In this document: positions 674 to 13,151 of the stretch, piece by piece | Layout of the letters: each line of letters starts with the position of its first letter | How positions within the stretch are numbered: position 1 is the first letter of the stretch | Assembly (NCBI GenBank): GCA_010692425.1 | Contig: JAAHHJ010000019.1 | Location: 101,264 to 133,263 of the forward strand | DNA length: 32,000 nt | From: Symploca sp. SIO3C6 | GTDB taxonomy: Bacteria; Cyanobacteriota; Cyanobacteriia; Cyanobacteriales; Coleofasciculaceae | Reading direction: 5' to 3' | The notes under the pieces: model-generated | Databases searched by the model: none | What the model was told of the DNA's origin: nothing | The model's input: only the letters and a program-made list of their open reading frames with translations | Made by a program: the position numbers and the translations under genes

Positions 674-3600
674 TTATTTCCCTAAGCGCTGCGATTGAGC
701 TGTCATAGAGCGTGATTTATAGATTTGAGCAACAGTATCCTTGGGATTACAGTATAGACAATCTGCAAACCGTTCGCTTGCTTCCCTAAAAGCCTTCCTA
801 TGGTAGAGAAATAAACCTTCTTCAAAAATATGCTTAGTGGCTAATTTACCCTGTTTAATTTCTGGCTCGTCTGCGTCAAATAATTCAAAAACAGCCACAG
901 CTTTTGACTTACCCTTAACTTTAACTTTATCGATGAAGCGAATACTATACTCAGTAGGGTCTTGTAAGTAAGCTAAAGTTTGATGAGAGATTAACAGTGA
1001 CACCCCATAGTCTTTGGTGAGTTTTTCCAAACGAGCAGCTAAATTAACATCATCACTAATTACAGTGCTATCCATGCGGCTTTTTCCACCCACTGTACCC
1101 AGCATCAAATAACCTGTATTAATACCAATGCCAATCTTAATTGGGACATAGTTAGAATTAGCACGGTGTTGATTGTATATAGTTAGCCTCTGTAGCATAG
1201 AAATTCCGGCTTTGACAGCATTATCTGCATTGCCGCTAAACAGTGCCATAATTCCATCGCCAACGTATTTATCAATAAAACCTTGATTTTCGATAATTGC
1301 TGGCTCCATACGAGAGAGATAGGCATTAATGAATTTGAAATTATCCTCTGGGGTTAAACTTTCCGAGAGAGTAGTGAAAGAGCGAATATCGGAAAATAGA
1401 ATAGACATCTGACGTTGCACATTATCCCCTAGCTCCACATCAATGATGCTCGACTTATTCAACAACTGGAGAAATTGACGCGGCACAAATCGACTATAAG
1501 AAGTGTTGAGTTTAGACAATTGCAGATGAGTGTGGAGTCTAGCTAGTAGTTCGTTCTTGGAAATTGGCTTAGCCAGATAATCGTTAGCACCAACGCTTAA
1601 TCCTGTTACTATGTCATGAACTTGATTTTTAGCTGTTAGCATTACTATCGGCAGTTCATTAGCCGGAAAGTTTTCGCGGAGCTGGCGACAAACTTCATAG
1701 CCAGTCATTCTCGGCATCATTACATCAAGTAAAATCAGGTCTGGTTGGAAACCCTTATCAATCATTGCCAATGCCTCGATCCCATTTGAGGCTTGAGTAA
1801 TAGCATAGTTTTCTAAAGAAAGATGATTTACCAATACCTGAAGATTAATAGGTTCATCATCTACAATCAGGATCCTAAACTGCTTGTTTTTGTCTTGGTC
1901 AAGTTCAGGTTTTTGCTCAGTTGTCAATGGCACTTGCTCATTAACTTCCGATTTCAAAGGCAGAAGGCAGCTAGCAGGGAACTGACTATTGATAACTGAT
2001 GAGGAACCATTCGCCACTGGCAGTGTGAAGATAAAGCGCGAACCCTTTCCCACTTGCGAGTTTACCCACACCTTTCCCCCATGCAACTCCACCAACTGTT
2101 TAGTGACTGTTAAACCTAAACCAGTGCCACCGTGCTCACGTGCCATAGAACCATCAGCTTGGGCAAAAGATTCAAAGATGTGTTCAAATTGCTCTTCCCT
2201 AATGCCAATGCCAGTATCAGAAACAGCAATTACCAAGTGAGGGGATTGGGGATCGGGGGAATCTTCCCAGTACTCATTCACCAACTCGGCTGTAATTTCT
2301 ACGGTACCGCTATCTGTGAACTTAATCGCATTGCCCACTAGGTTGTGCATAATTTGTTGCAAGCGATTTTCATCAGCCTTGGCTAGAGGCAAATTAGGGG
2401 GAATGGCGTTAATTAACTGTAAATCTTTATTGCCCACTAGCGGTTGGCTCAGGGTAAGAACAATCTCGGCAATTTCCCTTACTCCTACCTGTCTGAGTTT
2501 GAGCTCAAGACTCTTGTGCTTCAATTTGGAGAAATCAAGCAGGTCACTCACCAAACTATTGAGCCGATGCCCGCTATTGGCAATCATTAACAGATTTTTC
2601 TGCTGAAGTGCTGTGATTGCTCCTGCAGCTCCGTCAATGAGAGACTCAGCAATACCAATCATACCATTGAGGGGCGTCCGCAGTTCATGGGAGGTATTGG
2701 CTAAAAATTCATCTTTGAGTTTATCTAGACGCTGCAAGTCGGCATTAGCCTGTTTGAGTTCCTCCTCACGCCTTCGTAACCTGATTGTTGCTCTTTCCAC
2801 TGCTGCTTGCAGTCGTGCCGGAGCACTTACTAGAATGAACATCAAGCCCCCCGCTAAGATTGCTAGCAACCCTCCTCCCATCCACAAGGCTCCAGAAATA
2901 GGGGCAGTTTTGGGCCAGCCTTGGGCAGGGACTGCTGCTAACTGCCAGGAGCCATTGGGCAGACTTACTTCTAAAGTCACTGGCTCTCGCTCGAAAATGT
3001 CGGCATCTCCCAAGAAAACTTCTCCAGCAGCACCCAATCCATCCTTGCCTCGAACAGTGTACTGAAGTTGAGTTGAGATATTGAGCAATCCTGCTTCTGC
3101 AAATAGGGTATCTTGATCAATAATGATGCCCACTAAACCCCAGTAATCTCCACTTTCAGGAATACCATCGGCAGGGGTTAGAAAAATCGGGGTGCGACTG
3201 ATGAAAACTACGCCTTCTGGGACTAATTCGATTGGTCCTGCAAAGACGGTGCTTCTGTTTTTAATTGCTCTCTTAATCGCTTCCCGTTCTGCGGGGATTG
3301 ACATTGGGTTAAAGTTGATTGTACCTTCTTTCCCTGCTAAGGGGTAGATATGAGAGACGATTGTGTCCTTATAGAGGGCCAAACTACGGATGCCTGATTG
3401 CTGCGCCACAATTACTCTAGCTAGGCTTTCAAACTTCTTTTGGTTAATGTAAGGATCAATAGTCGAGATATATGCTTCCAAACCGCGCGTGAGATATATT
3501 CTTTGGTTGACTACCTGTTCAAGACGAGCTCTGACGGCACTCAATTGGTTGATAACATTGACGCGATTTTCTTCAAGAAAACGTTTTCTTTCTGAACGGT

Positions 3601-3736
3601 CTAGTACCCAGACAATAGCCAAAACCATTGCTACTGTTAAGGTAGCGGCGATATATGGGCGCGGGGCTCTAGCTATTGTACTGATAAATTTTCCAGAAAG
3701 TCTGGAAAATATTTGGTTTAAGGATTTAATTGGCAT
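674..3736 (-). CDS. Hybrid sensor: TM-CHASE-TM, HisKA/HATPase histidine kinase, receiver domain, class III adenylate/guanylate cyclase
   Basis: 1020-aa ORF. The N-terminal TM segment and CHASE-like periplasmic region read [32 protein letters not shown]...[10 protein letters not shown]. The H-box is [18 protein letters not shown]. The ATPase G-boxes are DTGIGI and GGTGLGL. The receiver reads [11 protein letters not shown]...[14 protein letters not shown]...MLTAK. The cyclase reads [14 protein letters not shown]...[11 protein letters not shown]...GINTG...[10 protein letters not shown]. Confidence 0.9.
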
Positions 3737-3878: not shown

Positions 3879-4081
3879 ATAATTCAGTCTATTTCTTAGG
3901 AACGTTCAATTTTGGTAAGCTATTCCACATTTAACTTGTAACTTGCCTATTTTGAACGGGCAGATGACGGTAGATAACGGGCGAGACGCCCATCCCACAG
4001 CCATGTCACAAGAAACTGATAATTTTTTATGTAAATTAAATGGGTTTTAGCTGAGCACGCTCTCCTTCAGGAGAGGGAGTG

Positions 4082-4837
4082 TCAATACCGTTGACATACT
4101 AAGAGTGTTCCTTTTTCCCCACGAGTTATCCGCATTTCTTCATCCAGATAGAGAATTTCTAAACTGCCTTTGGGTGATCTGTTCATGGTAAAAGAAACTT
4201 CTCCAGTATCTGGATTCATTGCTTGCGGTGGCACTAAACCGAACATTAGTCGGAAGAAACCGGAGATGAACCTTTCTTGCCAGCTTTTCTGTGAAGACTG
4301 GCGCTGCTTGCCAAAAACCTCTTGCCAATCTTTGATGTTTGTTCCCTCTTGGGGGGCTAGAGTTCCACCTGTAAATTTTACTTGCAATTTTGTATCACTA
4401 ATAGGATGACAGACTCCTTGATTGTGGACAATTCCAGTTAACTTGGGAAAAGACTCATCAATTGTAGTAAATTCCACAACAATATCGTGACTTCGTTGCT
4501 GTTTATTTTCCAGCAAGCGGACAGGTTGTAGAACTCTGTCAATAACCAATTTTAGTTGTGTGGGTTGAAACATATTAAAAGCCAGACGACCGAGGGTATA
4601 GGTAAATTTGCCATCTGGAAGTTGCTTCCCTCCTGGAAAATTCGGCGCGTTAATCAACAACCATTCACTATCGAGTAGTGTTTCACTACGTGCTGGTGCT
4701 GTGGTTGGATTCAGTTGGGTCAGATTATCAATAGCAGCAATTACGGCTTCGTCCTTGGTATTCCCACCGTTAGCAGCAAGTGCCTGACGCAAAGCTGTTT
4801 TCGCCGTTTCACATTTTCCTGTATCTAGTACTGTCAT
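4082..4837 (-). CDS. PAP/fibrillin (plastid lipid-associated protein) family protein
   Basis: 251-aa ORF. The N-terminal pattern K..L...I.....G......I..AID.L..LNPT..P....LLDSEW.L is typical of cyanobacterial fibrillins. Confidence 0.6.
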   Translation of the reverse strand: MTVLDTGKCETAKTALRQALAANGGNTKDEAVIAAIDNLTQLNPTTAPARSETLLDSEWLLINAPNFPGGKQLPDGKFTYTLGRLAFNMFQPTQLKLVIDRVLQPVRLLENKQQRSHDIVVEFTTIDESFPKLTGIVHNQGVCHPISDTKLQVKFTGGTLAPQEGTNIKDWQEVFGKQRQSSQKSWQERFISGFFRLMFGLVPPQAMNPDTGEVSFTMNRSPKGSLEILYLDEEMRITRGEKGTLLVCQRY

Positions 4838-7018: not shown

Positions 7019-7078
7019 ACCTCTCCTCACGTTAAAACGATGAGAATTCAAGCAGTTGTTACGAAGCCCATTAAATTG
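7019..7078 (-). mobile_element. Orphan fragment homologous to the right end (putative omega-RNA 3' region) of the tnpB element at 13187-13245
   Basis: The minus strand of 7019-7053 reads gcttgaattctcatcgttttaacgtgaggagaggt. Positions 13211-13245 read gcttgaatcctcgtcgttttaacgccaggagaggt. That is 31 of 35 identical by my hand alignment. Weaker similarity continues for about 24 nt further upstream. No tnpB coding sequence is attached. Confidence 0.55.
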
Positions 7079-7100
7079 ATAATAGTTATGAGTTTAGATT

Positions 7101-7160
7101 GCTCATAGCCATGAACCATGAGCAATGAACTATGAGCAATGAACCATGAACCATGAACTA
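7101..7160. repeat. STRR-like heptamer tandem repeat (CCATGAA family), about 8.5 units
   Basis: Direct reading gives gctcata gccatga accatga gcaatga actatga gcaatga accatga accatga act. Confidence 0.9.
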
Positions 7161-7229
7161 TTTCAAAATGCCATAATAGCGGTGAAACTCCTCAATCACG
7201 ATTAATCGCCACCGCAGAATTAAACTATC

Positions 7230-7637
7230 ATGACACTGGAATTATTCACCGCAGAAAAAATAGCTGAATTGGCATTTGGCGCAGTTATCGAAACTGGCAC
7301 TAGTGAATTAGTTAAAAAGTTGTGGGGGAAAATTCGCAACAAACTTAGGGGTGAACCTGTCGCCGAAGCAGCTTTAGTGGAAATTGAGCAAAATCATTCT
7401 AAGGAGCAGCTAGCGAAGATTGTGCCTTTTCTACAGGTGGAGATGCTTAAAGATCAGCAGTTTGCCCAGGAAATGCAAGCTTTGGCTAATGAAATTAACA
7501 CGGGATCTCAAGAGAATATTACCCAGCAGGATTTTGAAGCTCGTGATAATGCTGGTGTTGTTGGCAAGCAAGTAGGAACAGTTAACAAGGCAGGTGTCAC
7601 TGAAATTGGCTATCAGATTAACCTGGGAAACCAGTAA
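7230..7637 (+). CDS. Small helical protein with a G/N/Q/V-rich C-terminal tail; candidate N-terminal or effector module of the downstream NLR-like protein
   Basis: 135-aa ORF. Residues 1-95 are predicted helical, with an amphipathic start (IAELAFGAVIETGTS). Residues 106-135 read DNAGVVGKQVGTVNKAGVTEIGYQINLGNQ. It ends 4 nt after a slippery heptamer and lies directly upstream of the NB-ARC ORF. Confidence 0.6.
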   Translation: MTLELFTAEKIAELAFGAVIETGTSELVKKLWGKIRNKLRGEPVAEAALVEIEQNHSKEQLAKIVPFLQVEMLKDQQFAQEMQALANEINTGSQENITQQDFEARDNAGVVGKQVGTVNKAGVTEIGYQINLGNQ

Positions 7638-7706
7638 CGGCAACTGAATATACTCAAATCCTAGAGGTTGTTAAAAAACTTGGGCAAGGGAATCCCTCAG
7701 TTGCCG
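7625..7706 (+). promoter_or_regulatory. Candidate programmed -1 ribosomal frameshift cassette: slippery G_GGA_AAC, a 6-nt spacer carrying the 0-frame TAA, then a 10-bp stem
   Basis: Positions 7625-7631 are G GGA AAC in the 0 frame of the 7230 ORF, matching X_XXY_YYZ. The stop TAA is at 7635-7637. CGGCAACTGA (7638-7647) is the exact reverse complement of TCAGTTGCCG (7697-7706). The -1 frame is the NB-ARC ORF frame and is open from 7622. Confidence 0.45.
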
Positions 7707-7717
7707 CTTCCACTAAC

Positions 7718-10318
7718 TTGATTACCACTCCGCCCAATTTAAATAACTGGCTGGGTAGAAAAGAGGAAATTAGTCAACTGCAAACCTGGCTCTGTGATAC
7801 CACAGTTAACCTGATTGGTATTCAGGGTTTGGGTGGTGTCGGCAAATCGGCTTTGGCGGCTTATGTTTACAAACATATCGAGTTTTCCGATAAATTTTGG
7901 GCAGATATTAGTCAGAAGCCTGATTTTGTCGTCTTTGCTGAGAAGGTAATTACTGCCTTGGGTGGGCAAGTTACTAAGCAAGGAGATATCGACGAATTGA
8001 TTAATGATTTGCTCACCTGCCTTAGTCAGCGTCGGTGTTTGCTGGTGGTGGATAATCTTGAAACCCTGCTCACTCAATCGCGGCAGTGGCAAGATTCAAA
8101 CTATGAGAAATTTTTCAACCGTTGGCTACAGCAGGGAAGTCACAGCACATTGCTACTAACTACCCATGAAAAACCGATTCTGTTTCAAGCACAACCCTGT
8201 TGGTATCTGTTGCCGGGAATGAACATTAGCGATGGTGGGCTACTTTTGCAGCAGTTGGGTATTCAAGAAACTATTGCGCAACTAAAACTATTTTCTCAAG
8301 CAGTGGATGGGCATCCCCTAACCTTGCAGTTAGTGGCTGGTTATTTAAGGGAATACTGTAATAGTCAGTTGAGTGGTGCTTGGGAATTAGGATTAGAGCA
8401 GTTTGAGTTAGTAGCACAAGCCCAAGGACTACACCGGGATAAGCAAGATGTTCGTTTATCGTGGATTTTGCAGCAGCACTTTCAGCGCTTAACCCCTGTG
8501 CAGCACAATTTCCTGGTTAAATTGAGTGTTTATCGGCAAGCATTTAACCACCAAGCGGCTGGTTGGATGTGGGCTTCAGAAACAGAAGCAGTTAAGCCAG
8601 TGGTAGTGCAAAAGGAATTACGGGAACTATTCAACCGCTCCCTATTGCTGGAAACAGAAGATGGAAAGTATCGATTTCAGCCTTTGGTACAACAATATGC
8701 TCAGCAGCAAGGTATTGATATCAATACTGCTCACCAAAAAGCGATCGCATATTATAAATCCAATACTCAACAACCACCCTGGCAGACGCTAGAGGATGCC
8801 AGAGCGTATCTGGAAATTGTCTATCACTACTGTCAATTAGAACAATACCAACAGGCGATTGAATACCTTCAGCAGTCTTTGCAGATTTTTCAAGAAATAG
8901 TCGAGATCTCTGGGATTGTCACTTCTCTGGGTAATCTGAGCAATGTATACAATTCCCTCGGACAATACCAACAGACGATCGAATACTATCAGCAGTCGTT
9001 ACAGATTCAACAAGAAATAGGCGATCACTCTGGGATTGTCACTTCTCTGGGTAATCTGGGCAATGCATATAATTCCCTCGGACAATACCAACAGGCGATA
9101 GAATACTATCAGCAGTCGTTACAGATTGCTCAAGAAATAGGCGAGCGCTCTGGGATTGCCAATTCTCTAGGTAATCTGGGCAATGCATACGATTCCCTAG
9201 GACAATACCAACAGGCGATAGAATACCATCAGCAGTCGTTACAGATTGCTCAAGAAATAGGCGCTCGCTCTGGTATTGCCACTTCTCTCAATAATCTGGG
9301 CAATGCATACAATTCTCTAGGACAATACCAACAGGCGATAGAATACTATCAGCAGTCGTTAGAGATTTTTCAGGAAATAGGCGATCGCTCAGGTATTGCC
9401 AAATCTCTGAATAATCTGGGCAGTGCATACTATTCCCTAGGACAATACCAACAGGCGATAGAATACTATCAGCAGTCGTTACAGATTGATCAAGAAATCG
9501 GCGCTCGCTCTGGGATTGCCAAATCTCTGAATAATCTGGGCAGTGCATACTATTCCCTAGGACAATACCAACAGGCGATAGAATACCTTCAGCAGTCGTT
9601 ACAGATTGATCAAGAAATCGGCGATCGCTCAGGTATTGCCAATTCTCTCAATAATCTGGGCAATGCATACAAATCCCTAGGACAATACCAACAGGCGATA
9701 GAATACTATCAGCAGTCGTTACAGATTTTTCAGGAAATCGGCGATCGCTCTAGAATTGCCTATTCTCTGATTGGTCTGGGCAAAGCATACAATTTCCTCG
9801 GACAATACCAACAGGCGATAGAATACCTTCAGCAATCGTTACAGATTTTTCAGGAAATAGGCGATCGCTCAGGTATTGCCAATTCTCTAGGTAATCTGGG
9901 CAATGCATACAAATCCCTAGGACAATACCAACAGGCGATAGAATACCATCAGCAGTCGTTACAGATTTTTCAAGAAATAGGCGATCGCAAAGGAGAAGCT
10001 AATTCCCTTCAAACTCTAGCAGCTCTGTATCATAAGACTGGCAGAGTGCAGCAAGGATTTGCCACTAGCTATCAAGCTACCCAGATTTTGCAAGAATTTG
10101 AGCTTCCCCTGGATGTTTGGTCTATACCCAAGTGGATGAAATCGATAGCTAAATTTGCTCAACGGGGTAAGTGGCAATTGGTTTTATCCTTTGTTGCAGT
10201 GCTAGTGGCGTTTCCTTTTGCCTTGGTTATATTTGTGCTGTTGATGCTATGGCTACTGTTAAGCGCTCCTCTGAGACGACGCCGAGCTGATAAAGATATT
10301 CACACCCCTACAAATTAA
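7718..10318 (+). CDS. NB-ARC (AP-ATPase/STAND) NTPase with a 10-11 unit TPR array and a C-terminal transmembrane anchor (bacterial NLR-like protein)
   Basis: Walker A is GIQGLGGVGKSALA. Walker B is CLLVVDNLE. The RNBS-B-like motif is LLLTTHEKP and the GLPL-like motif is GHPLTLQLVAG. Tandem 40-aa TPR units follow, then the hydrophobic tail WQLVLSFVAVLVAFPFALVIFVLLMLWLLLSAPL and RRRR. The track start is TTG with no visible SD. The frame is open for 32 codons upstream (from 7622) without ATG or GTG, so translation may enter from the upstream ORF. Confidence 0.85.
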   Translation: MITTPPNLNNWLGRKEEISQLQTWLCDTTVNLIGIQGLGGVGKSALAAYVYKHIEFSDKFWADISQKPDFVVFAEKVITALGGQVTKQGDIDELINDLLTCLSQRRCLLVVDNLETLLTQSRQWQDSNYEKFFNRWLQQGSHSTLLLTTHEKPILFQAQPCWYLLPGMNISDGGLLLQQLGIQETIAQLKLFSQAVDGHPLTLQLVAGYLREYCNSQLSGAWELGLEQFELVAQAQGLHRDKQDVRLSWILQQHFQRLTPVQHNFLVKLSVYRQAFNHQAAGWMWASETEAVKPVVVQKELRELFNRSLLLETEDGKYRFQPLVQQYAQQQGIDINTAHQKAIAYYKSNTQQPPWQTLEDARAYLEIVYHYCQLEQYQQAIEYLQQSLQIFQEIVEISGIVTSLGNLSNVYNSLGQYQQTIEYYQQSLQIQQEIGDHSGIVTSLGNLGNAYNSLGQYQQAIEYYQQSLQIAQEIGERSGIANSLGNLGNAYDSLGQYQQAIEYHQQSLQIAQEIGARSGIATSLNNLGNAYNSLGQYQQAIEYYQQSLEIFQEIGDRSGIAKSLNNLGSAYYSLGQYQQAIEYYQQSLQIDQEIGARSGIAKSLNNLGSAYYSLGQYQQAIEYLQQSLQIDQEIGDRSGIANSLNNLGNAYKSLGQYQQAIEYYQQSLQIFQEIGDRSRIAYSLIGLGKAYNFLGQYQQAIEYLQQSLQIFQEIGDRSGIANSLGNLGNAYKSLGQYQQAIEYHQQSLQIFQEIGDRKGEANSLQTLAALYHKTGRVQQGFATSYQATQILQEFELPLDVWSIPKWMKSIAKFAQRGKWQLVLSFVAVLVAFPFALVIFVLLMLWLLLSAPLRRRRADKDIHTPTN
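8812..9990 (+). repeat. Intragenic tandem repeat with a 120-bp period, about 10 units, encoding 40-aa TPR units
   Basis: The motif ggacaataccaacaggcgatagaatac recurs at 8960, 9080, 9200, 9320, 9440, 9560, 9680, 9800 and 9920, with a diverged copy at 8840. The units are nearly identical at the DNA level. Confidence 0.95.
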
Positions 10319-10378: not shown

Positions 10379-10521
10379 CCCTTCACCCGCCTGGGGTTCA
10401 AACCCCAGTCTAATAGCTTAAGTCCTCTAAAAGAGGACTAAACACTAACCCTACATAGATTTCAGTCCATTTTAATGGACTTTTGTTATTAGCCCAGAGT
10501 TTGAACTCTGGGTGGGAAGGG
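10379..10521. mobile_element. MITE-like element of about 143 bp with imperfect terminal inverted repeats of about 29 bp and two internal hairpins
   Basis: The left end is cccttcacccgcctggggttcaaaccccag. The reverse complement of the right end is cccttcccacccagagttcaaactctggg. The internal hairpins are agtcctctaaaagaggact and agtccattttaatggact. Confidence 0.65.
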
Positions 10522-10687: not shown

Positions 10688-10930
10688 CTATGTAGGTGGG
10701 CCAAAATGATCTGGCAATTCTTCAAAACTAATACCTAATGCCTTGCAAAGAGCTCTCATCTGAGGCACACTCATCATTGCTGGAGACGCTCCCCTTTCCC
10801 AACGACTAATAGTTGCCACAGCTACACCAATCCTAGTCGCCAACTCCTGTTGAGAGAGTCCAGCCGCTTCTCGAAGTCTTTTTAATGGAGACTCACCCTC
10901 CTCCGAGCCTGATTTATCTCTTTTTACCAT
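10688..10930 (-). CDS. XRE-family helix-turn-helix transcriptional regulator
   Basis: 80-aa ORF. LKRLREAAGLSQQELATRIGVAVATISRWERG is a classic HTH_3/XRE signature. Confidence 0.85.
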   Translation of the reverse strand: MVKRDKSGSEEGESPLKRLREAAGLSQQELATRIGVAVATISRWERGASPAMMSVPQMRALCKALGISFEELPDHFGPPT

Positions 10931-10946
10931 AATTTAGGTTTACTAA

Positions 10947-10985
10947 ATATTTTGACTTGATATTTTGACTTGATATTTTGACTAG
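10947..10985. promoter_or_regulatory. Three tandem 13-bp direct repeats (ATATTTTGACTTG), each carrying a TTGACT -35-like hexamer; candidate operator or iteron array
   Basis: Direct reading gives atattttgacttg atattttgacttg atattttgactag. The array starts 17 nt from the XRE start codon, in the divergent intergenic region. Confidence 0.5.
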
Positions 10986-11161: not shown

Positions 11162-11287
11162 ATGAGAATTTGGTGTACTAACTGGCCAAAACTTCGCCTG
11201 GTAAATTTTCATACTCACCAGCACCACCAGTGCGGCTTATCATCCAATTTTAGTCTTCTCAACATCTACCCCAAGAAATCGCCATGA
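11162..11287 (+). CDS. Hypothetical 41-aa Cys/His-rich peptide, first of three overlapping small ORFs
   Basis: Own translation: [41 protein letters not shown]. Its TGA overlaps the next ATG as ATGA (11284-11287). It is below the track cutoff and there is no homology evidence. Confidence 0.3.
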   Translation: MRIWCTNWPKLRLVNFHTHQHHQCGLSSNFSLLNIYPKKSP

Positions 11288-11550
11288 GGAAATCAAAGGC
11301 GACAGAAGCGCGTCGCGTCATCAAAGATATTGCCGCCATCCGTGCAGCACTCAACCAACACGGCTATCGCCTCCGCAAACATCGCCGACAACTCCTGTGG
11401 AGCATCCTGATCACCCCAGAAAGATCCTATCAGCTAACTTACCAACCTGCGCCCATCAGCGCCTGGGTAATTGAGCCGCAAACCCAGGAAACAAACCACC
11501 AAACCCTCACCACCATTATCAAACTTGCAATTACAGGGAATCAATCATGA
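11284..11550 (+). CDS. Hypothetical basic 88-aa protein
   Basis: Track ORF. It has ATGA overlaps at both ends (11284-11287 and 11547-11550), which suggests translational coupling. Confidence 0.5.
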   Translation: MRKSKATEARRVIKDIAAIRAALNQHGYRLRKHRRQLLWSILITPERSYQLTYQPAPISAWVIEPQTQETNHQTLTTIIKLAITGNQS

Positions 11551-11774
11551 CTTACAAAGACAAACTATTTCCCTGGCGCATCATTCGCCATCTACCCAAC
11601 ATGCAGCGCCTCGTCGTCGCCCGGTTTCGGCGTCGCAATGAAGCAGAAGCCTACCTAAAAACTCTACAAGGACTAATGCCCAACCTGAAACATATCATTA
11701 TTTTCGATATAGAACCAGAAGACACCAACCAAGCTCTTCAAGAAAACAAAAAAATAACCTCGAGCGAGAGTTAG
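11547..11774 (+). CDS. Hypothetical 75-aa protein; W.I.R....Q..VVARF.RR.EAEAYL pattern
   Basis: Track ORF with an ATGA overlap to the upstream ORF. From memory the pattern resembles small proteins seen in cyanobacterial genomes, but this was not verified. Confidence 0.5.
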   Translation: MTYKDKLFPWRIIRHLPNMQRLVVARFRRRNEAEAYLKTLQGLMPNLKHIIIFDIEPEDTNQALQENKKITSSES

Positions 11775-11902: not shown

Positions 11903-13151
11903 CTGTACGGATGCCAACAAATACGGATGCCAACAAATAAGGCTTCATCCCGATGAATTATAAAAAGAGATTTTGGTGTTTATCTGTCAGCAAGCTAACA
12001 AGCTAGTTAATTGCGGCATATATTTGTTGAGGCAAGCATTTTTCACCTTTGGTCAAGTAGAACATGATGCCTATTCTCTCCACGCAGAACTTAAAGACAA
12101 TCCTCATTTTAAGATTTTGAGGTCAGCAGTTGCTCAGCAGGTACTCACAGGAGTAGCTGAATCTTTTAAGTCCTATAAAGAGTTGATAAATAAGTTCTTC
12201 AAAGGACAAATATCAGACAAAACCAAGCTGCCCAAATATCGGAAAAAAGACGGCTTGGCTACTATTTCATACCCTGCTAGATGGGTATCATTTTATCTGG
12301 AAACAGGTCAGGTCTTACTTAGTCTGGGCAAGACATTTAAGGAGTGGTTTGGAATTGAACACATTCAAGTGCCACCTCCCTATGGACTTCGTGTCAAAGA
12401 CATTGCCGAGATTCGGATTCTACCTAAAAATGGCTGCTTTTACGCTGAATACACTTACAAAATGCAGCCACAAATTGTGGATTTATCAGACAAGGCTTTA
12501 GGTATAGATCCAGGTTTGAACAACTGGTTAACCTGTGTTTCTACTGACGGAGACAGCTTTATTGTCGATGGCAGGAAAGTTAAAAGTCTTAACCAGTGGT
12601 ACAACAAGCAAGTGGCTAAGGGAAAAAAGAACAAGCCTCAAGATTACTGGGATGAGAAACTAGCTCAACTATCAGAGCGTCGTAATCGCCAGATGAGAGA
12701 TGCGGTTAACAAAGCAGCAAGATTAGTAATTAACTACTGCTTAAGTCATGAGATTGGCACGATTGTCTTTGGCTGGAACCAAGGCAATAAAAACCGTATT
12801 GAAATGGGCAAAAAGAACAACCAAGAGTTTGTAGGAGTGCCTACCGATAAACTCAAAGAACCTGTTACTCAGTTGTACCAACAGTATGGATTAAAATTTA
12901 TTGAAACCGCAGAATCTTACACCTCAAAGAGCAGTTTTTTAGACGGAGATTTCTTGCCAAAATTTGGTGAAAAACCCAAACGGTGGGAGCCATCCGGAAG
13001 ACGAGTATCTAGAGGTATGTATAGGACAAAGGATGGCATTGAAGTTAACGCAGATATTAACGGCGCTGCCAATATTTTGCGCAAAGTAGAGACACAGTTA
13101 AGTGTAAACTTAGCCAAGGTCTGTAGGGTATTTTTGAGGAGTGCCTACTAG
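11903..13151 (+). pseudogene. tnpB: TnpB (RNA-guided RuvC endonuclease family, cyanobacterial zinc-finger-less type) with a damaged 5' end
   Basis: The RuvC triad candidates are GIDPGLNN (D), ETAESYTSK (E) and NADINGAANILRK (D). The N-terminal motif YGCQQ occurs twice because of a 16-bp tandem duplication, tacggatgccaacaaa, at 11906-11921 and 11922-11937. This duplication shifts the frame. An in-frame TAA also lies at 11961-11963. The longest intact ORF is 11973-13151 (TTG start, 392 aa). Confidence 0.7.

Follow-up and report, generated by a model that had tools for sequence, protein, structure and literature searches.

A conserved slippery heptamer and -1 frame relation at the junction of a Bell-domain effector gene and its NLR in Symploca sp. 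SIO3C6: a candidate case of programmed ribosomal frameshifting

In this study, we examined a cassette of two overlapping reading frames in Symploca sp. SIO3C6, lying within a window of 32,000 nucleotides (nt) (assembly GCA_010692425.1, contig JAAHHJ010000019.1, positions 101,264-133,263, forward strand); the window is the whole stretch of DNA analysed, and the coordinates below are counted from its first letter. The cassette consists of a small open reading frame (ORF) that we assign to the Bell-domain effectors and, directly behind it in the -1 frame, a long frame for an NLR with NB-ARC and TPR domains. The junction between the two frames is the unusual feature of the locus, as it holds a slippery heptamer in phase with the small ORF. 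With moderate confidence we read the locus, from sequence comparison, as a Bell/BASS-NLR regulated-cell-death cassette whose sensor and effector would be linked by programmed -1 ribosomal frameshifting. The comparison set comprised 39 fetched loci, each with an NLR-type gene downstream of the small ORF on the same strand; two of them (L003, L005) are duplicates of other loci, and three stand outside the junction classes defined below, L016 having a partial small ORF and L028 and L029 disrupted ones.

The small ORF (7230-7637, plus strand) starts with ATG and encodes a zero-frame product of 135 amino acids (aa), consisting of a helical Bell domain (residues 1 to about 95) and a BASS10-like tail (about 96-134) that is predicted to be disordered. 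The AlphaFold2 (AF2) model shows helices at residues 8-20, 26-39, 43-55, 58-74 and 76-102, with a predicted local distance difference test score (pLDDT) above 90 over residues 30-90 and below 50 in the tail, and a helical bundle followed by a disordered tail is likewise how Bell domains have been described (Dyrka et al. 2020; Ibarlosa et al. 2024). A word-indexed search disclosed 16 homologues at 44-99% identity, all stand-alone proteins of 129-150 aa and mostly from filamentous or colonial cyanobacteria, and 27 homologues seen at locus or protein level are again all stand-alone and of the same length range. Searching 1.84 billion cluster representatives with a hidden Markov model profile extended the family to 291 relatives, nearly all of 120-150 aa, and about 90% of the family consists of the module plus tail and nothing else. 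In the alignment, a helical region of some 95 residues is conserved, including an invariant VPFLQVEM.KD, and leads into a variable tail rich in Gly, Asn, Gln and Val. The Bell domain, with a ratio of nonsynonymous to synonymous substitution rates (dN/dS) of 0.07-0.40, is under purifying selection.

The family assignment comes from Microcystis. The best tblastn segments place the small ORF at 43-48% identity to the Microcystis small ORFs over the Bell domain (E 7e-19 to 6e-15, computed among candidate stretches). These small ORFs end …IAMNATAYDNSTVKMVGKIEADTV.F and their partner NLRs begin MTSETN.NEINLSATAQDQSKVNLIGKIE…, strings that are those of the BASS10 pair EPF21721.1 (Bell)/EPF21720.1 (NLR) of Microcystis aeruginosa (Dyrka et al. 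2020, Table S2, bioRxiv 10.1101/2020.01.06.895854); because the homologue strings match this listed pair, we place the small ORF in the Bell-domain family. Many of its profile relatives also begin with MEP(I/L)(S/T), an N-terminal motif that Ibarlosa et al. (2024, bioRxiv 10.1101/2024.11.07.622273) ascribe to the Bell, Hell and Babybell domains. Judged by its sequence, the cassette corresponds in bacteria to the HET-S/NWD2 amyloid signalling of fungi.

Sequence and structure libraries gave little further help, as the small ORF had no match in Pfam, NCBIfam or PADLOC, and a PDB sequence profile search returned chance matches to vimentin only. A Foldseek comparison of the AF2 Bell model with the PDB gave no relevant entry, the lowest E being 0.48, and revealed no similarity of the helical bundle to HeLo, the four-helix bundle of MLKL or Babybell, which tells against an executioner role. 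Since neither search gave a meaningful match, a fold relationship to HeLo, MLKL or Bab could not be shown, and the putative pore-former assignment rests on family membership and published work; as those who determined the Bab structure point out, these domains differ widely in topology (Ibarlosa et al. 2024). The module could instead be an adaptor, that is, a death-like or effector-associated domain, with killing left to the NLR anchor or to an unlinked recruited effector, a view that is compatible with frameshifting. In distant relatives, a Bell-type N-module with a BASS9-like motif is fused within single ORFs to CHAT-TRADD_N-TIR, TIR, CHAT or GUN4 (P0109, P0074, P0133, P0046), and such fusions would fit an adaptor role too; in addition, the homologue P0176 matches HetE-N (PF20701) at E 0.008 with 16.9 bits where 25 are required, a sub-threshold match that serves as a lead only, and the window protein has no match to that model. 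Set against this, about 90% of the members stand alone, and in these the terminal output must lie in the module itself; many members carry the MEP(I/L)(S/T) start of the Bell, Hell and Babybell domains, and Bab in Escherichia coli is reported to move to the cell periphery, with membrane alterations, upon phage infection (Ibarlosa et al. 2024). We therefore consider the adaptor view rather improbable and retain the Bell-effector assignment.

The second frame was delimited by the ORF lister as a large ORF of 866 aa with a TTG start (7718-10318, plus strand). Its NB-ARC nucleotide-binding domain (7760-8350, plus strand) displays GLGGVGKS (Walker A), LLVVDN (Walker B), LLLTTH and DGHPL in the translation and matches Pfam PF00931 over residues 15-211 (E 9.3e-10, 38.6 bits against a gathering cut-off of 23.5), which identifies it as an NTPase of the STAND/NB-ARC type. 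It is followed by a hyper-regular TPR sensor array of 40-aa units (8838-9988, plus strand; Tandem Repeats Finder (TRF) period 120 nt, 9.6 copies, 89% matches, score 1679), and Pfam TPR_12 matches the large protein at E 1.5e-145. The protein ends in a predicted tail anchor (10172-10285, plus strand) made of 34 hydrophobic residues (819-852, nt 10172-10273; maximum Kyte-Doolittle 19-residue mean 3.08) and RRRR (10274-10285). An equivalent hydrophobic helix with a basic tail was noticed in the NLRs of L004, L007, L010-L012, L014, L015, L018 and L020-L027; it is kept in most NLRs of all three junction classes and is absent in the close relative L006. The helix probably anchors the sensor at the membrane. 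No discussion of a C-terminal anchor was found in Dyrka et al. (2020), where the word 'transmembrane' is absent, and the literature consulted did not treat a tail-anchored bacterial NLR either. Against relatives, the NB-ARC domain shows a dN/dS of 0.14-0.22, indicating that the NLR past the frame break is under purifying selection and is not a pseudogene.

A first-pass annotation of this DNA, made from its letters and translations, had described an NLR-like module lacking a recognisable enzymatic effector. The NB-ARC motifs, the TPR array and the hydrophobic segment with RRRR that it listed are all present, and scans of the locus proteins against Pfam, NCBIfam and PADLOC likewise disclosed no enzymatic domain; within PADLOC-DB v2, which includes Avs/AVAST and bNACHT among others, only generic TPR-driven matches appeared (PDLC01169 and similar) and no system-specific model. 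It had proposed two candidate effectors. The first, the small upstream helical ORF, gains support from its Bell-domain homology and five-helix AF2 model, and the missing effector is explained because this ORF is a known kind of effector. The second, the membrane tail, is conserved in most NLRs of the family and is more likely a localisation device. The membrane-disruption or abortive-infection output that it suggested appears to us the best reading. Its suggestion that the system could be an uncharacterised variant did not hold as regards the kind, which is known, the Microcystis pair EPF21721.1/EPF21720.1 being listed as BASS10 (Dyrka et al. 2020).

At the junction, the small ORF closes with AAC CTG GGA AAC CAG TAA, the stop TAA occupying 7635-7637. 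One codon before the stop, and in phase with the small ORF, lies the heptamer G GGA AAC (7625-7631, plus strand), a slippery sequence of the X XXY YYZ pattern and -1 type. The NLR frame stands in the -1 register and is open only from 7622; in full it covers 7622-10318 (plus strand), comprising a linker (7631-7717), the NB-ARC domain, the TPR array and the anchor, and it overlaps the small ORF by 15 nt with the heptamer inside the overlap. Both marks of a frameshift site are thus present, namely an in-phase heptamer and a downstream ORF in the -1 frame that is open across the site. Ahead of the supposed TTG start this frame encodes the linker PVTATEYTQILEVVKKLGQGNPSVAASTN, and the linker peptide is conserved among homologues, with indels in multiples of three. 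Within the window, an in-phase XXXYYYZ in the last four codons was found in two of 33 long ORFs, this small ORF being one; against so low a background, the presence of the heptamer in at least four independent tail types lies far beyond chance.

Three classes of junction were recognized among the relatives. Class A (Microcystis, Pannus and others) has TAA as the stop of the small ORF and, beyond a spacer, an NLR with an ATG of its own, located 88-110 codons ahead of the P-loop, and with a matching motif copy; the heptamer is absent. Class C comprises the window and L031, L032, L006, L001, L037, L033, L034, L035, L036 and L038, drawn from independent NCBI, ENA, Logan and TARA assemblies. All 11 of these loci harbor an in-phase heptamer (GGGAAAC in three, GGGAAAG in three, AAAAAAG in five), have the NLR in the -1 frame, and place the zero-frame stop 0-1 codon after the heptamer. 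The heptamer type tracks the tail, G GGA AAC/G going with …INLGN/K and A AAA AAG with …EKK, …PKKN or …QKKS. Site and frame relation are conserved although the heptamer occurs in three sequences, the tails differ and the NTPases belong to two classes. The second NTPase class is seen at L038 (3501-7435), where the -1-frame partner is an nSTAND1-WD40 NLR and not an NB-ARC-TPR protein. As a side observation, the Bell protein of L038 ends …HVQKKS (CAA AAA AAG TCG TAG), and its linker holds a second amyloid-like stretch, DASGNAILAGDGNIVIIQTS.

The rule also held when it was applied blind, as the junction class of five divergent Bell proteins, picked by their C-terminal residues alone, was predicted correctly in all five. 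At least 100 of the fetched Bell proteins, a biased sample, have slip-type endings, and the DNA was checked in 11, all of them positive; the set of Dyrka et al. (2020) holds about 2,800 Bell genes. Transcriptional slippage was considered as a source of the frame change; it is possible at the A-run sites and implausible at GGGAAAC. Sequencing error was rejected, since assemblies made independently show the same junction and GGGAAAC contains no long homopolymer.

Class B comprises L002, L039, L007 and eight Microcystis loci (L012-L015, L025-L027 and L030 listed). Here the small ORF ends in TGA, never in TAA or TAG, and the NLR follows directly in the same frame (TGA CTG…, TGA ATA…). A usable start codon and an NLR-side motif are both lacking; the sole ATG stands five codons before the P-loop, and L025 is without any. 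In class B, UGA readthrough looks like it takes the role that the frameshift would play in the window. The downstream hairpins of class B are weak (z -0.7 to -2.1), which makes a reading of the TGA as selenocysteine unlikely. Selenocysteine machinery is rare in cyanobacteria. Combining classes B and C, we consider it fairly probable, if a shade less so than the reading of the window itself, that a cyanobacterial cassette family makes its NLR only as an extension of the effector, through a -1 shift at a G GGA AAS or A AAA AAG site and, in sister lineages, through readthrough of UGA. At these loci gene callers mark two genes, and annotation pipelines give such NLRs wrong starts or truncated products.

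The tail of the small ORF, …ENITQQDFEARDNAGVVGKQVGTVNKAGVTEIGYQINLGN (7515-7631, plus strand), is related to BASS10, is of the amyloid-signalling type and is encoded once. In the alignment, its core A-x-D-N-x-x-V-x-x-G-K pairs with …ATAYDNSTVKQVGKIEADTV of BASS10 proteins, the window tail …FEARDNAGVVGKQVGTV… showing a 2-residue deletion relative to BASS10; we predict that it is an amyloid-signalling motif. Inspection by eye of the NLR-frame translation from 7622 to the NB-ARC domain showed no second copy of the motif in the linker. A regular-expression scan of the window for a second copy missed even the known tail and is evidence neither way. A single tail copy would thus be common to the free effector and the predicted fusion.

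Directly behind the heptamer, a stem-loop at 7638-7706 (plus strand) is a candidate frameshift stimulator, with arms CGGCAACUGA (7638-7647) and UCAGUUGCCG (7697-7706). The perfect 10-bp stem begins 6 nt past the heptamer, where a stimulatory structure is expected at 5-9 nt, with a minimum free energy of -23.4 kcal/mol and z of -2.56. In an alignment of seven loci, 87% of stem cells are paired as against 12-52% in slid controls, and three pairs are compensatory (C-G to U-A in three loci; G-C to A-U); a covariation score as high was reached in one of 500 shuffles. The alignment covers seven sequences, with the A AAA AAG loci L035, L036 and L038 outside it. Synonymous rates (dS) point in the same direction. 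Compared with L006, L031 and L032, the linker (7631-7717) has a dS of 0.03-0.20 as against 0.19-0.46 in the Bell and NB-ARC domains, the counts being small, and it is clearly below the flanking domains in two of these three closest pairs and marginally lower in the third, while at the protein level tail and linker evolve fast. An RNA element overlapping the coding sequence would be expected to lower the linker dS in this way.

The predicted -1 product has 1029 aa, with 134 zero-frame residues followed by 895 from the -1 frame. Its predicted junction peptide is …EIGYQINLGNPVTATEYTQILEVVK, the junction tryptic peptide is AGVTEIGYQINLGNPVTATEYTQILEVVK, and the counterpart in the EKK class is …HEKKVIVITESVLER. 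BLASTP aligned this fusion colinearly, across the junction, with the single-ORF protein P0069 (residues 3-217 against 5-222, E 6e-17) and with the single-ORF protein P0132 (residues 6-375 against 13-367); P0117 also aligns. The fusion hence reproduces an architecture that is found elsewhere as a plain gene, being colinear with single-ORF Bell-NB-ARC-TPR proteins.

The existence of such single-ORF proteins (P0069, P0117) could also indicate that the cassette is a decaying all-in-one Bell-NB-ARC-TPR gene, broken by a pseudogene frameshift or an assembly error, from which only the N-terminal fragment is made. Two class C loci lean that way and count against functional recoding: in L001 (6405-7367) the NLR frame stops after 320 codons, and in L037 (around 4000-4100) an in-frame stop stands between the W.GR motif and the P-loop, in both cases despite an intact Bell gene and heptamer. 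The L037 contig comes from a long-read assembly, and its extra stop may be an error. For several reasons we hold decay to be very improbable. Eleven loci, taken from independent assemblies, share the position of the frame break, their small-ORF identity falling to 35% or below. The NB-ARC dN/dS stays at 0.14-0.22, and intact ORFs of 700-1100 codons continue past the break. Moreover, the site has changed in sequence and yet remained a canonical heptamer, and GGGAAAC is not an error-prone long homopolymer.

Several further observations weigh against programmed frameshifting. The hexamer GGGAAA doubles as codons for the conserved Gly-Lys/Asn of the tail, and in E. coli the shift sites G GGA AAG and A AAA AAG are stronger than G GGA AAC. 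The stem conservation may be partly protein-driven, because the arms overlap the conserved TTEY and SVA codons, and with seven sequences and arms over conserved codons the covariation is supportive but thin. Near-cognate codons (ATT, ATC, CTG) occur in the linker of every locus, and cyanobacteria can initiate without a Shine-Dalgarno sequence; for these two reasons reinitiation could be a route to the NLR. They would suit two ordinary genes, in which the NLR starts at TTG 7718 or by reinitiation at a near-cognate linker codon and the two proteins meet through a contact other than the motif. Such an arrangement agrees with the ORF lister, which places the TTG at 7718, and with the gene callers; moreover, 42% of Bell/NLR pairs overlap and are probably polycistronic (Dyrka et al. 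2020).

The first-pass annotation had drawn the locus in just this way, as two separate genes with a TTG start at 7718, and had overlooked the in-phase heptamer (7625-7631), the position of the NLR in the -1 frame, the stem past the heptamer and the lack of an NLR-side motif. The start itself stands on weak ground. TTG 7718 is conserved in one of ten class C relatives, namely L006, which is 92% identical, and at this position five of seven aligned close relatives have a CTG or CTA leucine codon. With the frame open from 7622, the linker conserved and the TTG poorly conserved, TTG 7718 is probably not the NLR start. Nor is there a ready substitute, as between heptamer and P-loop ATG occurs in none of the 11 class C loci and five of them have no ATG, GTG or TTG at all. 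The two-gene arrangement also leaves some regularities unexplained: about 30 codons upstream of 7718 are conserved as protein, an in-phase heptamer stands within the short overlap in every class C locus, and relatives with their own ATG always carry the NLR-side motif that is absent here. We accordingly regard two separately started genes as unlikely, though as the strongest of the competing explanations. The absence of a conserved start codon of its own underlies our proposal that the NLR is made only via the frameshift.

Under programmed frameshifting, translation of 7230-7637 would yield an abundant free 135-aa protein of Bell-BASS10 type, the Bell domain being the predicted membrane-targeting executioner. 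A minority of ribosomes would slip -1 at 7625-7631, aided by the stem-loop at 7638-7706, and continue into the NB-ARC-TPR frame, giving the 1029-aa product with Bell, BASS, linker, NB-ARC, TPR and membrane anchor in that order. The frameshift would in this way provide the NLR with its NLR-side motif copy, which in canonical pairs is encoded a second time. On sensing a trigger, the TPR array may drive NB-ARC oligomerisation and so cluster the N-terminal tails, which could nucleate an amyloid fold and template the free Bell-BASS pool; the N-terminal helix of the converted pool would then attack the membrane and cause cell death, as abortive infection or programmed cell death. The fusion might also work in the manner of a plant coiled-coil (CC) NLR resistosome. 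The sequence comparisons show the anatomy of the locus, its family membership, the conserved heptamer and frame, purifying selection on both parts and the colinearity with single-ORF relatives; that frameshifting occurs, and its rate, we infer, as we do the trigger, the amyloid templating, the membrane attack and the role of the anchor.

With respect to its surroundings, the cassette behaves as an accessory module, because homology to related cassettes (L006, L031) starts at 7129-7146, stops within the TPR array in the closest relatives, and is flanked by unrelated genes (blastn). The starting point lies in or just past a tandem repeat of the heptanucleotide CCATGAA (7107-7161, plus strand; TRF period 7, 7.1 copies), about 70 nt 5' of the Bell gene, and a promoter-like site with a weak consensus match only lies at 7056-7083. 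Between the small ORF and the NLR, the promoter and terminator scan showed no promoter-like or terminator-like site, and Rfam and tRNA scans of the whole window gave no match. Just past the NLR stop stands an inverted repeat resembling a miniature inverted-repeat transposable element (MITE) (10386-10516; 47-nt arms, 72% complementary), followed by an XRE-family helix-turn-helix gene (10688-10930, minus strand), two small ORFs of 88 and 75 aa without Pfam match (11284-11774, overlapping by 4 nt at ATGA, between the XRE and TnpB genes) and a TnpB/OrfB_IS605 gene (11973-13151). Repeats and mobile-element debris thus bound the cassette, and the accessory setting surmised in the earlier annotation is confirmed by the MITE-like repeat, the XRE and TnpB genes and the differing flanks of the relatives.

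Some of these elements recur elsewhere. A hairpin-rich insertion resembling a related MITE-like element lies between the Bell gene and the NLR in L004 (548-760) and L005, and in L033 an XRE gene stands directly upstream of the Bell gene too. A perfect 13-nt direct repeat, ATATTTTGACTTG (2.8 copies, 10947-10983), is operator-like and lies directly upstream of the divergent XRE gene. The neighbours of the cassette are ordinary chromosomal genes, namely a CHASE-histidine kinase-cyclase, fibrillin, a PaO-type Rieske oxygenase, DUF72 and RecR; the first is a hybrid signalling protein of 1020 aa (674-3736, minus strand) with CHASE, HisKA/HATPase, receiver and adenylate/guanylate cyclase domains in one ORF.

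Full-text literature searches found nothing relevant on frameshifting or readthrough together with Bell, BASS, NLR or NB-ARC and brought up no programmed frameshift in an NLR, immune or cell-death gene pair, and to our knowledge very few cellular bacterial genes use programmed -1 frameshifting. If the proposal is true, it would give prokaryotic NLRs and immune signalosomes their first described case of programmed recoding, and it would add a large set of cellular, non-mobile and non-phage frameshift genes. One copy of a prion-like motif would be both the nucleating element of the sensor and the templated element of the effector, which removes the need for two motif copies to co-evolve, and the recoding rate would set the sensor-to-effector ratio, a low stoichiometry being a plausible safeguard for a lethal self-propagating switch. 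The proposal offers an answer to how an NLR without effector domain, motif or start codon can signal, and it joins two fields that have so far stood apart, recoding and NLR/amyloid immune signalling.

With reference to known systems, the closest are the Microcystis aeruginosa pair EPF21721.1/EPF21720.1 and the other BASS pairs (Dyrka et al. 2020), which share a homologous Bell domain with a BASS10-related tail, a collinear NB-ARC-TPR gene with regular repeats directly downstream, the same C-terminal hydrophobic anchor, and a filamentous or colonial cyanobacterium as host. The canonical NLR of such a pair has its own ATG and its own N-terminal motif, whereas the window NLR has neither and stands in the -1 frame behind a heptamer. 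The window thus shows the Bell protein and the adjacent collinear NB-ARC and TPR gene of the Bell/BASS-NLR kind and lacks the NLR-side motif copy; we file it as a variant and not as a plain member, because that motif is absent save via the fusion. The motif-pair screen of Dyrka et al. (2020) would not list such pairs, for want of a matching motif pair, and screens that catalogue amyloid signalling by motif pairs are blind to the heptamer-junction class. The Bell/BASS-NLR kind is already known, and the conserved junction, with its putative recoding, is the new part.

HET-S/NWD2 of Podospora anserina and Bab/Agp of E. coli follow the same logic, in which a short prion-like motif of the sensor templates the same motif of a small, helical, membrane-targeting executioner encoded by the neighbouring gene; Bab is Bell-related, has a reported role in abortive infection, and in its structure four helices cup a hydrophobic helix 1 (Ibarlosa et al. 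2024). In those two systems the motif is encoded twice on independent proteins, whereas here a single copy would serve both through recoding, and the sensor product of the window, unlike theirs, would also carry the Bell domain. The all-in-one Bell-NB-ARC-TPR proteins P0069 and P0117 match the predicted fusion in domain order and spacing, an order that they share with plant CC-NB-ARC NLRs such as ZAR1. They differ in being one ORF with one product, while in the window the zero-frame stop would let the free effector predominate, leaving the fusion as the lesser product.

Finally, the classical bacterial -1 frameshift genes include dnaX (tau/gamma), the IS3/IS911 OrfAB genes and the phage tail-assembly chaperones G/GT. 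They have an X XXY YYZ heptamer as well, which is A AAA AAG in several relatives of the window, and a downstream structure, to which the candidate stem-loop would correspond, and they make two products that share an N-terminus, as is predicted here; as in G/GT, the long form here would tether the shared domain to a second function, and the product ratio is presumably fixed. Unlike these genes, the class C loci always place the zero-frame stop 0-1 codon past the heptamer, and their sister lineages appear to use an in-frame TGA.

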